DNA of 64,000 nucleotides from Minisyncoccota bacterium (GCA_021734445.1 JAIPIY010000001.1:31849-95848); one strand, 5' to 3'. Counted from the stretch's first letter, positions 7,942-12,311 are shown. Numbers and translations: made by a program. The notes: a model not told the origin generated them from the letters alone.

Positions 7942-7946
7942 CGAGT

Positions 7947-7977
7947 TAAAAAAGAAACGCGAAAGCGTTTCTTTTTG
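7947..7977. terminator. Bidirectional terminator after ssrA
   Basis: AAAAAAGAAACGC-GAAA-GCGTTTCTTTTT. Confidence 0.55.
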
Positions 7978-7986
7978 TTTACGAGT

Positions 7987-8277
7987 GCGAGATGGGGGGA
8001 ATCGAACCGAGGGTGCGCGAAGCCGGACGATAGTCCGTGCACCCGAGTGGGGGTCGAGCGAATGAGATGTTTTATAATCCGCCAACTGGCGGAGAAATAA
8101 AATATCCATGAGAGTGACCGATTCCCTTTTATTTACTTTCGAGGGGAATCGAAAGGCGTAGGTCGCGAAGCCAATTTTCGTAGAAAATTGATGACCGAGC
8201 CAGGGTCGTGAGCACATATTTTTAACGAACGAAGAGAGTATAAAAATAGTGACTCCTGACCGATTTCCCCACTCTTT
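7987..8277. repeat. Cluster of degenerate copies of the ssrA 3' end (two inverted, two direct); possible relic att sites
   Basis: Minus-strand copies: ...CACCCTCGGTTCGATTCCCCCCATCTCGCA (plus 7989-8016) and ...CGCGACCTACGCCTTTCGATTCCCCTCG (plus 8141-8170), each next to a GGCTTCGCG(C)ACC unit. Plus-strand copies GTGACCGATTCCCTTTT (8114-8130) and GACCGATTTCCCCACTC (8258-8276). Compare the genuine ssrA end GGTTCGATTCCCCCCATCTCC. No ORF is supported here; the ORFs 7879..8310 (-) and 7897..8100 (+) overlap these RNA-like repeats. Confidence 0.45.
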
Positions 8278-8710
8278 ATAACCGTTTACAAAAACCGCCC
8301 TCTCCTCCAAACAAACTTGAAATAGAAGAACACATATACGAAGGTTTATACCAATTTAATTGCGTATTTATCCATGAAGCTGGTCTCATATAAAAATTAA
8401 GTGCGGAATTCTCCGTAATTTTATCAATTTCTACTTTATTCTTTTCATAGTTTTCTTTAGATAAATAACAACCCATTGGGGTCTGTATCTTACGACCTCC
8501 AGTTGTCGCCCCTTTATAATATCCATTCATCTCATTACAAATCTCTCGATGTCCATGGCTTTGAATTAAACTGATGACAAGTACAAGAAAAAATAAGCAA
8601 AAAAACATAAAACAAAAAGATTGTATAATTTTCTGTCTTCTTGAAAGCCCGGCGAACCATACTTTACATTCTCTAATAAATGACGTTTCCATATATTTAT
8701 ATGGTAGCAC
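8276..8710 (-). CDS. Hypothetical small membrane protein
   Basis: ORF with one hydrophobic helix (FCFMFFCLFFLVLVISLI). Its 3' end overlaps the repeat cluster and the start is uncertain. Confidence 0.3.
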   Translation of the reverse strand: MLPYKYMETSFIRECKVWFAGLSRRQKIIQSFCFMFFCLFFLVLVISLIQSHGHREICNEMNGYYKGATTGGRKIQTPMGCYLSKENYEKNKVEIDKITENSALNFYMRPASWINTQLNWYKPSYMCSSISSLFGGEGGFCKRL

Positions 8711-8770
8711 TAGAATGACTTTTTTTCTATTACACTAGAAATCCAAATCAAAAAATGTATAATACTATCA

Positions 8771-9184
8771 ATGAAATCACTAATCTTGCATTGCTCAAAA
8801 TTCAATTCAGAATTCAAGAGTCTTGCCACAAGACCAAAGAATATAGAACCGGAAACGGTTAACCAAACAAAATGGGAACACAATGAATCTGTGGTTGCCC
8901 TTATTACTGTAGAAAAAGAAGACAATATAGAAACCATTTCTAGCCAGATGGCTGAAGAACTTAAAAATATTCTTAAAGATTTAGGTAAAGAAAGTTTAGT
9001 TATTGTTCCATTTGCACATCTCTCAAATAATATAGCAGACCATAGAAGTGCCTTGAGTTTTTTAGATTTATTGGAAGATAAATTAAAAGGATTTAAAATA
9101 TCACGCGTTCATTTTGGATCGCATAAATCGCTATTACTAGATATACCTGGTCATGTCGGTAATGTAAGATTTAGAGAATTTTAA
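8771..9184 (+). CDS. Hypothetical protein
   Basis: 137-aa ORF. Its stop overlaps the start of the downstream methyltransferase (TAATG), suggesting translational coupling. Confidence 0.4.
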   Translation: MKSLILHCSKFNSEFKSLATRPKNIEPETVNQTKWEHNESVVALITVEKEDNIETISSQMAEELKNILKDLGKESLVIVPFAHLSNNIADHRSALSFLDLLEDKLKGFKISRVHFGSHKSLLLDIPGHVGNVRFREF

Positions 9185-9807
9185 TGGAAAACAAAAAAGA
9201 ACAAATAAAAGATTTTTGGAATTCGTCATGTCATGATTATGATGAACACATGCAAAATACTCAACATTATAAAGCACAAGAAAAATTATTAAATATTACT
9301 CTTTCTTATTTTCATCAACCAATATTAGATATAGCTTCAGGTACAGGTTTTCTTGTTAAAAAATTGAAAGAAACATTTACTGAAATACATGCTAATGATT
9401 TTTCTACAGAGATGACAAAAAATCTTATTAAGGAACTATCTGATATTACGATTACTAATGATGATGCCGAATTGCTATCTTCGTATAAAGAAAATTCTAT
9501 ACATACTATCTTCTGTTGTAATGCATTTTTCTATTTACAAAATAGAAAAGATTCCATGTCTCGCTGGTCGCAAATTCTGATCCCTAAAGGGAGAATTATT
9601 CTCTTTGAAGAATATCCTTTTATTAATACCCAGAATCAAGTTTTTGATAAACACACAGAAAATCTCAATTCGCTTGTTGATCCAATATCGCCAACTGAAA
9701 TCAAGAAAATAGCTACAGAGAATAATTTTGATTTAATATTTGAAGAAAAAACTGACATAGATAATCATCATAAATTATATGCTTTGGTTTTTCAAAAGAA
9801 ATATTAA
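9184..9807 (+). CDS. Class I SAM-dependent methyltransferase
   Basis: Motif I ILDIASGTGFLVKKL, then an acidic motif-II-like region. 207 aa. Confidence 0.65.
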   Translation: MENKKEQIKDFWNSSCHDYDEHMQNTQHYKAQEKLLNITLSYFHQPILDIASGTGFLVKKLKETFTEIHANDFSTEMTKNLIKELSDITITNDDAELLSSYKENSIHTIFCCNAFFYLQNRKDSMSRWSQILIPKGRIILFEEYPFINTQNQVFDKHTENLNSLVDPISPTEIKKIATENNFDLIFEEKTDIDNHHKLYALVFQKKY

Positions 9808-9874
9808 AATTTTAAGTACACGTTTGACACTCATCCTCAATGTGCTACCATGCAACCAAACAAACCTGTTCCCC

Positions 9875-10300
9875 ATGAAAAACAATCCAATCTTGCAGAT
9901 GTTTGCGAAAGATTTTAAAAGGCGCAAACAATTACGTACCCGAATTTGGCGTGCCGAGAAATCAAAACGAGATCTTGAACATGCCCTACATGAAAACATT
10001 GTCAGTGAATTGCTGGCATATACCATGTCAGATGCCGAACGCGGTTTTCTAAATTACAAAACCCGCGGAGTCAGAATCATTGAAACTTTGATACATCATG
10101 CGATGAGCGACACCTACAGACAACCCAAGGTACTAATCGATGAAAGTGTCCAACGTTTTCTATTTTCAAAATTGAACCAAAATAGAATCAAACCCATTAT
10201 CGATTCATTGAATAAAACCTTTGAATCTGTCCTGAAATTTAATTTACATGGACGCCATCTCGATGCGGAATTCATCAAACCCAAACCCTCCAAAGAATAG
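9875..10300 (+). CDS. Hypothetical protein
   Basis: ORF beginning MKNNPILQMF... (internal Met of the track ORF 9779..10300, chosen to avoid overlap with the methyltransferase). Confidence 0.35.
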   Translation: MKNNPILQMFAKDFKRRKQLRTRIWRAEKSKRDLEHALHENIVSELLAYTMSDAERGFLNYKTRGVRIIETLIHHAMSDTYRQPKVLIDESVQRFLFSKLNQNRIKPIIDSLNKTFESVLKFNLHGRHLDAEFIKPKPSKE

Positions 10301-10406
10301 TTCTAAGGAGGGTTCTTTTTTATACAAAACCTATCCTCATTCCCCTTGTCCCACACCCAAAAACCTGTATAGTAATAAAAGAACTATGCACCAAAAACCA
10401 CACATC

Positions 10407-10919: not shown

Positions 10920-10989
10920 TGGTGTTTTATTTTTTATTGACAAAGAAATCTTTTTTATTTATAATATAAACAACCAAAAGCTCTTTGTC

Positions 10990-11229
10990 ATGGGAAACAT
11001 CCAAGAATTAAAGGCATTTTTGAAGTTGTACCAAAAAGAGTGTTCCAGTCTGCAAAAAGGACTTGTCTTGGGGCGACTAAAAGATTTTAATGAAAAAAAT
11101 GGTACGTCTCATTCGATAGAATGGAAACAAGTGGGTATGGCTGATTTATATACATGGGAAATAACCGAAAGGTGGAATAACCTCAATATCGATCAACCCC
11201 TCAAACCTCTTCAACTACGCCTGTTTTGA
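10990..11229 (+). CDS. Hypothetical small protein
   Basis: ORF from MGNIQELKAF... A terminator follows it. Confidence 0.3.
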   Translation: MGNIQELKAFLKLYQKECSSLQKGLVLGRLKDFNEKNGTSHSIEWKQVGMADLYTWEITERWNNLNIDQPLKPLQLRLF

Positions 11230-11234
11230 ATTAT

Positions 11235-11267
11235 GGGCCTTTCCAACTGGAAGGGCCCTATTTTTTT
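11235..11267 (+). terminator. Rho-independent terminator
   Basis: GGGCCTTTCCAACTGGAAGGGCCC followed by T7. Confidence 0.5.
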
Positions 11268-11310
11268 ATATCACATGATTTCTTTTCTATGATTTGCTAT
11301 ACTGTCCCCC

Positions 11311-11706
11311 ATGAGTAAAAAAGATATAGCTAAAAAAATTGCAGTCAAAAGATCATCAGCGGGTTTAGGTCTTTTTGCAATCCAAGATTTTAAAAAGGGT
11401 GAACTGGTGATTGAATACACCGGGGATCGCATCACCGATGCAGAAGCACAAAAACGTGGTGGAAAATATCTTTTCCAGGTAAACGACAATCTGACCATAG
11501 ACGGAACCAAACGTCACAACACAGGAAGATATATGAATCATGCGTGTAAACCAAATGCCGAAGCAGAGCATGACGAAGAAACAGACAGAATATACATACG
11601 TGCAAAAAAACCCATCAAATCTGGTGAAGAGATAACGTATCATTATGGTAAAGATTACTTCAAAAGAATGATTCAACCCGTTGGGTGCAAATGTGCTTCT
11701 TGCTAA
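11311..11706 (+). CDS. Minimal SET-domain protein (putative protein-lysine methyltransferase)
   Basis: 131 aa. SET motifs GLGLFA, RYMNHACKPN (NHSC-type), EEITYHYG (ELxxDY-type), and a Cys-rich post-SET tail CKCASC. Similar in size to viral or archaeal minimal SETs. Confidence 0.75.
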   Translation: MSKKDIAKKIAVKRSSAGLGLFAIQDFKKGELVIEYTGDRITDAEAQKRGGKYLFQVNDNLTIDGTKRHNTGRYMNHACKPNAEAEHDEETDRIYIRAKKPIKSGEEITYHYGKDYFKRMIQPVGCKCASC

Positions 11707-11731
11707 TAAAAGTATTGACTTTTAATATTTT

Positions 11732-12259
11732 GTGTGTAATAATGTATGCGAACTAATCCATATAACCATGGCAGCACCTTGTGAACTAATGAGAGGCGGA
11801 ATTCTCCGCGAATGGCATATATTTGGCCAAACAATCGAACGACCATTGTTCGAAGTAATCCAATTATTATCCATAGAATCCCTAACAAGAGATTTTTGGG
11901 TGAACAGGTTGAGACCAATGTTCTTCAGTCAACTGATTGAAATTGACAACAAAAATGGGAATGACAACAATGTGTTGTTCACCATAATGGTCGTCTTGAC
12001 CCATTTTCCTGATGCTCTTTATGGAAAATCAGGAATTGATTTGGATACATTATACGATGATTACCATCGGAATATGACATCGAGAACAAAAAAAATCTTG
12101 GTTTCTGCCTGCTATATCCAAGCACACGCAAATCAAAAAAATGTCAAAAAGACCATGATTGACATGATCAACATGAAGCAGACAGGAAATCTGTTTCAAA
12201 AAGATGATAAAATCATCGAAAGGATCGCCAGAGTAGAAGAATCTCTGGTTTGTTCATAA
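11732..12259 (+). CDS. Hypothetical protein
   Basis: 175-aa ORF with no recognisable motif. Confidence 0.35.
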   Translation: MCNNVCELIHITMAAPCELMRGGILREWHIFGQTIERPLFEVIQLLSIESLTRDFWVNRLRPMFFSQLIEIDNKNGNDNNVLFTIMVVLTHFPDALYGKSGIDLDTLYDDYHRNMTSRTKKILVSACYIQAHANQKNVKKTMIDMINMKQTGNLFQKDDKIIERIARVEESLVCS

Positions 12260-12261
12260 CC

Positions 12262-12311
12262 AAGACCCCGAAAGAAACAAGTAGTAATACTTTTTTCTTT
12301 CGGGGTCATTT
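12262..12311. terminator. Bidirectional terminator (14-bp perfect stem)
   Basis: GACCCCGAAAGAAA-(16 nt loop)-TTTCTTTCGGGGTC followed by ATTTTTT. Confidence 0.5.

Follow-up and report, generated by a model that had tools for sequence, protein, structure and literature searches.

Genomic islands at tRNA and transfer-messenger RNA (tmRNA) genes leave attachment site (att) duplications, direct repeats that run from the T-loop to the 3' end of the gene, keep it intact and may occur in tandem. The primer-binding site of long terminal repeat (LTR) retroelements and retroviruses is an exact complement, about 18-20 nt long, of a tRNA 3' end, and attC sites as well as the CTX attP act as substrates in folded-strand form. 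Some tmRNA genes, mostly from Bacillota, contain group I introns (PMC13011429), and the same publication describes anticodon-loop introns, not the element treated here. The present analysis concerns the 3' flank of the tmRNA gene (ssrA) in a 64,000-nt stretch of DNA from a Minisyncoccota bacterium (GCA_021734445.1, JAIPIY010000001.1:31849-95848), hereafter "the window". Positions 7987-8272 were shown to be two tandem copies of a conserved sense-strand structured element that occupies the 3' flank of tRNA and tmRNA genes in Paceibacteria/Patescibacteria. The element is described neither in Rfam 15 nor in the full-text literature searched; judged from its sequences, it forms a well-supported structural family.

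Tandem units behind ssrA

The tmRNA gene of the window is of the standard one-piece type (Rfam RF00023, 107.7 bits). The features of the locus are given below; the units were scored with covariance model (CM) R1, which is described in the next section.

7102-7548: smpB, upstream of the tmRNA gene
7561-7942, plus strand: tmRNA gene (ssrA), tag ANSLGIKSPYFAGFAPAYA (ARAGORN, Rfam RF00023)
7922-7928, plus strand: T-loop of the tmRNA, from the sequence
7924-7942, plus strand: X1, the tmRNA stretch from C56 to C74 that the arms of the element copy and complement
7934-7940, plus strand: 3' strand of the acceptor stem, followed by A73 (7941) and C74 (7942)
7949-7976, plus strand: terminator-like hairpin with a 12-bp stem, AAAAAGAAACGC-GAAA-GCGTTTCTTTTT
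7989-8008, plus strand: X' of unit A, exact 20-nt antisense of tmRNA 7920-7939, predicted to form one long stem with the hairpin
7994-8129, plus strand: unit A (CM R1, 67.9 bits, E 6e-16, plus strand only)
Parts of unit A, plus strand: P1 7996-8004/8119-8126; P2 about 8007-8049, including GCGAAGC 8017-8023; GGGGTCG 8050-8056; P3 about 8052-8119; GTGAC 8114-8118
8119-8126, plus strand: X2 of unit A, CGATTCCC, a shortened sense copy of the tmRNA 3' end and 3' strand of P1
8141-8271, plus strand: unit B (CM R1, 77.6 bits, E 1e-18)
Parts of unit B, plus strand: P1 8143-8151/8261-8270; P2 with GCGAAGC; CTGAC 8256-8260
8261-8272, plus strand: X2 of unit B, CGATTTCCCCAC, a degenerate sense copy of the tmRNA 3' end

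The preliminary description of this locus reported four decayed copies of the ssrA 3' end and took them for stacked relics of integration and excision. Pairwise alignment on both strands recovered these segments, and all four exist, two inverted and two direct. The first is perfect rather than decayed, 7989-8008 being complementary to 7920-7939 at 20/20 positions, and the second inverted copy (8143-8153) matches at 11/11; the direct copies are the two X2 segments, 8119-8126 and 8261-8272. With at most one mismatch, GGGGAATCGAA occurs four times in the window against 0.9 expected, and four or more occurrences were found in 0/100 shuffles. Nor are the copies independent of each other. They form two pairs, 7996-8004/8119-8126 and 8143-8151/8261-8270, and the repeat spacings of 147, 152 and 142 nt, together with the alignment, indicate two tandem units of about 130-135 nt. 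Instead of stacked relics, the segments are the paired arms of a conserved structured element, which essentially refutes the relic reading on the terms that the preliminary description itself had set. The att reading is unsupported because integration leaves direct repeats only, whereas at this locus the most exact copy is an inverted one and both inverted copies have a direct partner with which they pair. It is also unsupported because genomes with SmpB proteins of only about 50% identity have kept the core between the arms, with compensatory changes in it.

Both units share one architecture, a three-way junction. The closing helix P1 (GGGGAATCG/CGATTCCC(C)) consists of one inverted and one direct ssrA copy, hairpin P2 contains GCGAAGC, and the long hairpin P3 opens with GGTCG/TGACC. 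The inner P2 stem has changed on both sides, CGGAC/GTCCG in unit A versus CAATTTTC/GAAAATTG in unit B, which is a compensatory difference. Unit B is the older and more diverged of the two. The fold z-scores for the plus and minus strands are -6.07 and -4.11 in unit A, and -3.34 and -2.57 in unit B.

A further RNA gene does not account for the repeats, as had been suggested for checking: only the tmRNA (7561-7942) and a tRNA (4891-4965) pass as tRNA or tmRNA genes in the window (ARAGORN, Rfam), and no functional second RNA gene was found. A permuted tmRNA was rejected, since the tmRNA_permuted model reached 24.7 bits against the 47 required and its match stems from the real T-arm. A cmscan of 7900-8400 against Rfam 15 at E values up to 10 gave only hairpin artefacts and the tmRNA 3' end; the matches to MIR7696, mir-727 and MIR1023 merely reflect the long X1-hairpin-X' stem.

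In the hairpin at 7949-7976, the T-run pairs with an A-run, which gives it a bidirectional look. The rule of the terminator prediction tool does not list it as a terminator, and we think that it was missed because the T-run sits within the stem. Upstream, in the 3' part of smpB, a perfect sigma-70 consensus (TTGACA-18-TATAAT, 7396-7425, plus strand) lies 135 nt 5' of the tmRNA start and may be the ssrA promoter.

The element family and its gene-matched arms

SmpB-anchored ssrA loci were compared, with one genome per species, which placed the window in a Paceibacteria/Patescibacteria genome; loci are denoted by L numbers, L001 being the closest to the window (99% SmpB identity) and the others reaching 46-58%. 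About one-third of these loci show the same order as the window: X1, the terminator-like hairpin, X', GAAAG, P2 with a GGAG...CGAG internal loop, GGGGTCG and P3, GTGAC, and X2. The arms match each genome's own T-arm variant (e.g. GGGAATTGAA, CGGAATCGAA and GAGAATCGAA). Perfect 19-nt direct repeats occur in L004 and L038, and two whole units each in L003 and L007. The core is also found behind tRNA-Ser genes (L007, L010), where its arms are copied from tRNA-Ser.

CM R1, built from 14 copies, gave 34 matches in 1.1 Mb of genome loci and at least 102 further matches in 80 contigs from a metagenome pattern scan. The family comprises at least 135 copies from Patescibacteria genomes and metagenomes, counted for the metagenome part among the matches listed. 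Among the same matches, 104 of the 135 copies come after a tRNA or tmRNA gene called by ARAGORN and have its orientation, and the hosts are tmRNA and at least 35 anticodon classes of tRNA. All CM matches are on the strand of the host gene. The distance from gene to element is usually 12-80 nt and larger in tandem arrays. The other copies mostly sit at the edge of a contig or follow a gene that ARAGORN missed; apparent true orphans are few (L087, L108, L139). Two pattern scans of viral contigs, made to look for a phage or plasmid attP counterpart, yielded 2 and 9 matches, the second among 2.9 million contigs with a chance expectation of about 11 (rough estimate), and none of these matches reached a CM E value of 0.01 or less (best L082, E = 0.15).

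Covariation was assessed in two alignments. MAFFT and RNAalifold (alignment A2) gave 20 base pairs, 19 of them with compensatory changes. In the 83 model-aligned copies of alignment A3, where fitting to the model inflates pairing, 93.5% of the cells are paired versus 65.6% in shuffles, and 459 cells have changed on both sides versus 140. The covariation score is 0.716 versus 0.211 (reached in 0/500 shuffles), with slid controls at or below 0.141. Alignment A3 also holds 73 G.U/U.G cells, which would be mismatches on the opposite strand. Compensatory changes above controls and strand-specific wobbles, the marks of a generic structured non-coding RNA, are both present. A minus-strand RNA, the 3' untranslated region (UTR) of the convergent open reading frame (ORF) 8276-8710, was rejected on account of these wobbles, the plus-strand-only CM matches and the better plus-strand folds. 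The consensus reads P1 - GA AAG N C GGAG - (P2) - CGAG N C GG GGUCG - (P3, one bulged A) - GUGAC C. A classical kink-turn or box C/D motif (GGAG/CGAG, GUGA) does not fit, the bulge being, on our reading, 1 nt instead of 3 and the A of GUGAC covarying as a Watson-Crick pair. A kissing interaction of the loop of a further hairpin, P0 (see below), with the P2 or P3 loop (CUGC/GCAG) was inconsistent among the copies inspected.

The arms follow simple rules. In every examined case, both arms match the 3' end of the gene upstream, the 5' arm in antisense and the 3' arm in sense. X2 usually starts at T-loop position C56 (T-CGAwTCC in X1 versus GTGAC-CGAwTCC in X2) and ends at C74, at times a few bases beyond it and, in tandem arrays, after the whole next unit. 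In a "short-arm" class (L130, L068, L071, L134), X starts at A73. The duplicated segment is 7 to more than 30 nt long, and the arms differ per host gene. X' is the exact complement of the 3' strand and not a copy of the gene's 5' strand, as it has A3 and not the G3 of the G3.U70 pair in all 11 tmRNA cases and in tRNA-Ala. The helix of the T-part is present in all copies; X' also spans the acceptor strand in 24 of 81 copies, and in 14 of these 24, P0 (22-29 nt) sits exactly at the boundary of acceptor and T-stem. Acceptor 3' strand, trailer, hairpin and X' often make up one perfect palindrome with arms of up to 27 bp. A run of four or more T, resembling an intrinsic terminator, occurs in 56/86 spacers and in 15/15 of those behind element-bearing tmRNA genes. 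A minority of copies have CCA behind X2, 8 in which X1 has CAA and about 8 in which both have CCA. The gain of CCA in X2 (8 versus 0) was considered as a sign of RNA-derived copying and found weak, because N73-C-A-A is the norm with or without the element.

Regardless of the element, the tRNA genes of these Patescibacteria (L001-L162; e.g. window 4891-4965) encode C74 in 91-96%, A75 in about 60% and the full CCA in 13-24% of cases, which hints at an unusual rule of 3'-end processing.

The element is dispensable at many genes. In the set with one genome per species, it stands behind 13/45 tmRNA genes (29%) and 6/69 tRNA genes (9%); the tRNA-Ile(TAT) of the window lacks it, while L068, L071, L072 and L106 carry it at that tRNA. 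L134 (3.3 units of 134 nt), L104, L085, L088, L105 and L121 contain tandem units that are identical. L001 and the window are 88% identical in DNA over 4839-8135; L001 has another terminator and another P2 in unit A, and most of its unit B is gone, only the 3' end being kept. L043 has one unit more than its relative L046, and their tmRNA sequences part exactly at the T-loop. A GAUGAGAAAGG junction in the tmRNA-linked copy of L007 was otherwise read in tRNA-Ser, tRNA-Leu and orphan copies and in no other tmRNA-linked copy, so that in L007 the core has apparently moved while the arms are local. Perfect 17-19-nt direct repeats flank small segments in L007 and L010.

Additional DNA was seen at several copies. 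An insert of about 190 nt with a MITE-like look (miniature inverted-repeat transposable element) is nested in the P3 loop of a copy in L043 (9310-9621), with a 12-bp inverted repeat at its ends (AGAGCCTGTTCA...TGAACAGGCTCT). In L010 (8863-10260), 1.2 kb with an opposite-strand gene for a secreted-looking protein of 287 aa separate the left part of the core from TGAC and X2, and in L007 (9180-9600) about 400 nt with an 84-aa ORF lie between two copies. The contig of L001 ends (6219) 177 nt past unit A, which may be an assembly break at a variable or repeated region. One copy lies 90 nt behind a 5S rRNA gene (L065; features at 4137-4204, 4295-4400 and 7833-9001, all on the minus strand); its arms do not fit the 5S 3' end, and 5S was not counted as a host. 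A partial 5S-like duplication lies between that gene and the copy, and the 23S rRNA gene of the same locus contains two group I introns. An unusual tRNA-like gene that ends in GGGGTTCGAATCCCTATCCCCGAACCA is present twice on the minus strand of L086 (about 2440-2700 and downstream of 2354); it was called by neither ARAGORN nor Rfam, and the element stands behind one of the two copies.

The strain-variable segment and neighbouring genes

The stretch 8276-12260 had been described as a run of accessory genes before core genes resume at truB, and the locus as a recombination hot-spot. A strain-variable islet does exist, but it ends near 10933, not at 12260.

8273-10933: strain-variable segment, abutting X2 of unit B, absent from L001, six ORFs
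Genes in 8273-10933: hyp144 (minus strand), hyp75 (minus strand), a protein with a threonyl-tRNA synthetase (ThrRS) editing domain, an S-adenosylmethionine (SAM) methyltransferase, hyp173, NUDIX

From 10934 onwards, the window and L001 have a promoter and hyp120 in common; among other relatives, L002 and L005 have SET in syntenic position behind ssrA, and L021 and L026 have truB behind it. GC is lower (0.28-0.33) in 8501-10000. The segment may be an insertion or a deletion, as seen against one comparator (L001). No ssrA-like repeat (at most 3 mismatches in 17) occurs at the far end of the stretch. The locus is a variable spot all the same, as L001 shows. The earlier ORF calls (SAM methyltransferase, NUDIX, SET, TruB) agree with Pfam, and Pfam searches of 10 ORFs in 8276-13053 likewise found no integrase or recombinase domain. 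The ORF formerly given as unknown (8771-9184, plus strand) encodes an archaeal-type ThrRS editing domain on its own (PF08915, E 6.5e-21), and its stop codon runs into the start of the SAM methyltransferase gene (9184-9807, plus strand); both genes are within the strain-variable segment. Farther downstream, 13138-14328 on the minus strand encodes a predicted surface protein of 396 aa that has a long low-complexity tract rich in N, S and T and a membrane anchor at its C-terminus; no homologue of it was found in 80 related loci.

Integration at ssrA does occur in this group. In L066 (8305-14540), a 6.1-kb island is inserted in the tmRNA 3' end; it encodes a large serine recombinase of 544 aa and separates the tmRNA from the element, which implies that genuine integration at ssrA is an event separate from the element. 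The coding end of the recombinase overlaps the tmRNA, and the island also contains a C5 DNA methyltransferase-like ORF and a 551-aa ATPase-like ORF. A match to the Rfam LOOT RNA lies at 11385-11512 (minus strand) of L066, and similar sequence is found behind the tmRNA in L011, L054 and L017.

Possible explanations and comparison with known systems

Predicted folds of read-through transcripts bear on how the element and its host RNA could interact. In the window transcript 7900-8135, X1 and X' form one long stem, with a minimum free energy (MFE) of -122.6 kcal/mol and z = -11.7. MFE folds were also predicted for transcripts from tRNA to X2; they describe unmodified RNA at equilibrium and leave co-transcriptional folding and tRNA modification out of account. 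Pairing of X' with X1 occurs in 33/45 of them, and 41/45 no longer form the normal acceptor stem. In 37/48, the 5' strand of the tRNA pairs with X2, presenting a tRNA with the unit as a T-loop insertion. X1, X' and X2 may accordingly be modelled as a three-partner strand-exchange system around the 3' end of a stable RNA. A transcript that extends beyond the hairpin would hold all three partners, X1 being within the mature RNA. X' could either prolong the hairpin by zipping onto X1 or bind X2 and so close the three-way junction of the element; when X' holds X1, X2 might stand in as the 3' strand of the tRNA.

The explanation favoured here, at a probability of roughly 40%, is that the element is a non-essential, horizontally spreading insertion cassette that needs no enzyme of its own. 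Since each unit brings along a copy of the gene's 3' end as well as a terminator, its insertion at the T-loop would leave the gene complete. Incoming DNA would find a homology arm on either side, the conserved tRNA body to the left and X2 to the right, and could spread between genomes via ordinary homologous recombination, while tandems would arise via unequal exchange between X copies. The RNA fold would be kept because it recaptures X', so that the host RNA is not trapped, and it may also let tRNA-processing enzymes cut the element off.

Several points weigh against the cassette. For every functional step, namely transcription, processing and mobility, we infer rather than observe. Homologous recombination covers spread at the same gene but not the origin of arms for a new tRNA species, for which microhomology or template switching at the shared T-loop is the best we can suggest; the short-arm copies, with X from A73, do not use the T-loop at all. 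Junction nucleotides are more than 90% conserved over a range of 41% to 71% GC. This looks like tighter constraint than a harmless fold would call for and may point to a bound protein, a ligand or catalysis; judged by sequence, the conservation looks aptamer-like. Where X1 and X2 differ, X' follows neither of them clearly (31 against 19). Most spacers (56/86) look like efficient terminators, so that the core may be transcribed rarely. Lastly, there is the inflated pairing in alignment A3; the signal is taken as real despite this fitting because of the MAFFT result and the viral control.

Somewhat unlikely is a host cis-acting trailer module that handles read-through from the very strong promoters of tRNA and tmRNA genes. 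P1, together with P0 in full-length copies, would mimic the acceptor/T-arm helix for RNase P, RNase Z and the CCA-adding enzyme, with the outcome that downstream genes are insulated or a stable tRNA-like small RNA is released; alternatively, the X1/X'/X2 toggle would gate maturation on a protein or ligand bound by the core. Strong purifying selection at the RNA level, the invariant junction nucleotides and the constant, co-oriented position in the trailer agree with such a module. So does P0 (14/81), which sits between the acceptor and T-stem complements, where the D and anticodon arms leave a tRNA. In the tRNA cluster of L145, the element stands between genes without terminators, and a few orphans (L139, L138) keep a tRNA-like X2 ending in CCA. 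A host module is, however, difficult to reconcile with its presence behind only 29% of tmRNA and 9% of tRNA genes, with turnover between near-identical strains and with identical tandems of no obvious purpose. A generic tRNA-like helix would do as a cut site, which makes gene-specific arms superfluous; X' pairs through A73 and C74 into the trailer, so that the helix does not end in an NCCA overhang, and the identity pair G3.U70 is swapped for A-U.

Unlikely, too, is an RNA-guided or RNA-catalysed mobile insertion, a tiny intron-like or ribozyme unit whose 10-20-nt antisense arm would pick a tRNA-type 3' end. Entry would be at the T-loop or the acceptor end, and the spare 3' exon and terminator would free the host gene from any need for removal. 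In a variant of this reading, the unit would be a conserved sensor that gates tRNA or tmRNA maturation by three-way strand exchange. More doubtful still is the stricter form, an intron-like or ribozyme model in which the unit is inserted between U55 and C56 of the T-loop and X2 serves as the real 3' exon. The core would join UU/C56 and GUGAC/C and catalyse cleavage, ligation or splicing, an RNA or single-stranded DNA intermediate would spread to many tRNAs, and X' would be the guide that picks the target. In the 37/48 MFE folds, X1 pairs with X', which puts both junctions at one multi-helix junction, with the caveat that they ignore co-transcriptional folding and tRNA modification. A conserved G.U wobble in GGUCG/UGACC lies beside the 3' junction, X' is a guide-like exact complement of 10-20 nt, tandem arrays resemble multimeric repeats processed by ribozymes, and the group I introns of tmRNA genes mentioned at the outset offer a precedent. 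Against this stand the lack of any match to a ribozyme or intron family at E values up to 10 and a core of about 70 nt, far below the size of a group I intron. The acceptor part of X2 is decayed in many copies (both window units, L093, L145, L136), and in L010 it no longer fits the 5' strand of the tRNA, so that a spliced form cannot be required. Group II introns were not detected in Patescibacteria (PMC13011429), and that source of reverse transcriptase therefore seems absent.

An element read as single-stranded DNA is improbable. Its fold would be recognised by an HUH transposase or integrase acting in trans, in the style of repetitive extragenic palindromes (REP) with RAYT, IS200/IS605 or integron attC sites. 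Structure is kept more than sequence, the G.T wobbles are strand-specific, and the terminator-adjacent, multi-copy distribution is like that of REP and of bacterial interspersed mosaic elements (BIME). Yet the arms differ at every site, where REP and IS ends are constant, and the orientation follows the tRNA gene in all 104 cases among the matches listed. An invariant three-way junction joined by purine-rich strands is more typical of RNA, and no associated transposase was seen, though no systematic transposase search was made. The att-relic model, in which an integrase acting at the ssrA 3' end left decayed duplications, is very improbable: the serine-recombinase island of L066, the perfect direct repeats of L007 and L010 and the 2.7-kb variable segment adjoining X2 of unit B agree with it, but it leaves the inverted copies and their pairing unexplained, as well as a core conserved with covariation over deep divergence and at least 35 tRNA classes, and there is no integrase, no far-end repeat and no viral attP counterpart.

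If the family is what it appears to be, a widespread, so far undescribed class of structured elements exists in Patescibacteria, whose genomes are about 1 Mb in size and otherwise stripped of spare DNA. Its defining helix is written from the neighbouring gene's own 3' end, which makes it neither a classical att scar nor a MITE, riboswitch or known intron. It points either to DNA that spreads by using universally conserved tRNA genes as homology arms or to an RNA device acting on tRNA and tmRNA 3' ends. Island finders that rely on displaced tRNA or tmRNA fragments will mis-call such loci as islands, and assemblies seem to break at them, as at the contig end of L001. With the covariance model and at least 135 copies at hand, the question is directly testable.

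Among the systems compared, TIGR-Tas arrays are unrelated 36-nt guide RNAs, and a riboswitch, with its aptamer and expression platform in a 5' UTR, does not fit an element whose place is invariably behind a stable-RNA gene; the gene that comes next in the window is convergent, on the opposite strand. Like REP/BIME and MITEs, the element is short, multi-copy, structured, intergenic, often located at gene 3' ends and prone to tandems. Unlike them, it takes its termini from the adjacent gene and is strictly co-oriented with strictly tRNA-type genes; a MITE or IS repeat was rejected for want of constant terminal inverted repeats and of a fixed short target-site duplication. As with group I introns (PMC13011429), it is a structured insertion in the loop of a stable-RNA gene, in a phylum rich in such insertions, and its predicted read-through fold has the topology of an intron. 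The comparison fails in that there is no Intron_gpI match, the core measures about 70 nt, and a full 3'-exon copy with terminator makes splicing unnecessary.

With att duplications, the element shares all three features named at the outset. It differs in an insert of only 130-190 bp without an integrase, in the constant presence of an inverted copy and a structured core, and in one core family serving at least 35 tRNA classes and tmRNA; to our knowledge, no integrase family has so wide a target range. X' resembles the primer-binding site of LTR elements as an exact complement of a tRNA 3' end. Unlike that site, it is complementary to the genomic sequence, trailer included, and not to the mature CCA end, and it lies in cis directly behind the tRNA gene, with neither reverse transcriptase nor LTRs. 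Finally, tRNA-like structures and minihelices (mascRNA from MALAT1, viral 3' tRNA-like structures, the bacterial YrlA module) are similar in that the helix of the element reads like an acceptor stem stacked on a T-stem, the acceptor part in 24/81 copies; full-length copies have a hairpin at the position of the D and anticodon arms, and processing by tRNA enzymes would be plausible. The element, in contrast, replaces the T-loop by five further base pairs and the P2/P3 junction, its helix runs through A73 and C74 with loss of G3.U70, and it mimics the neighbouring gene itself rather than a generic tRNA.

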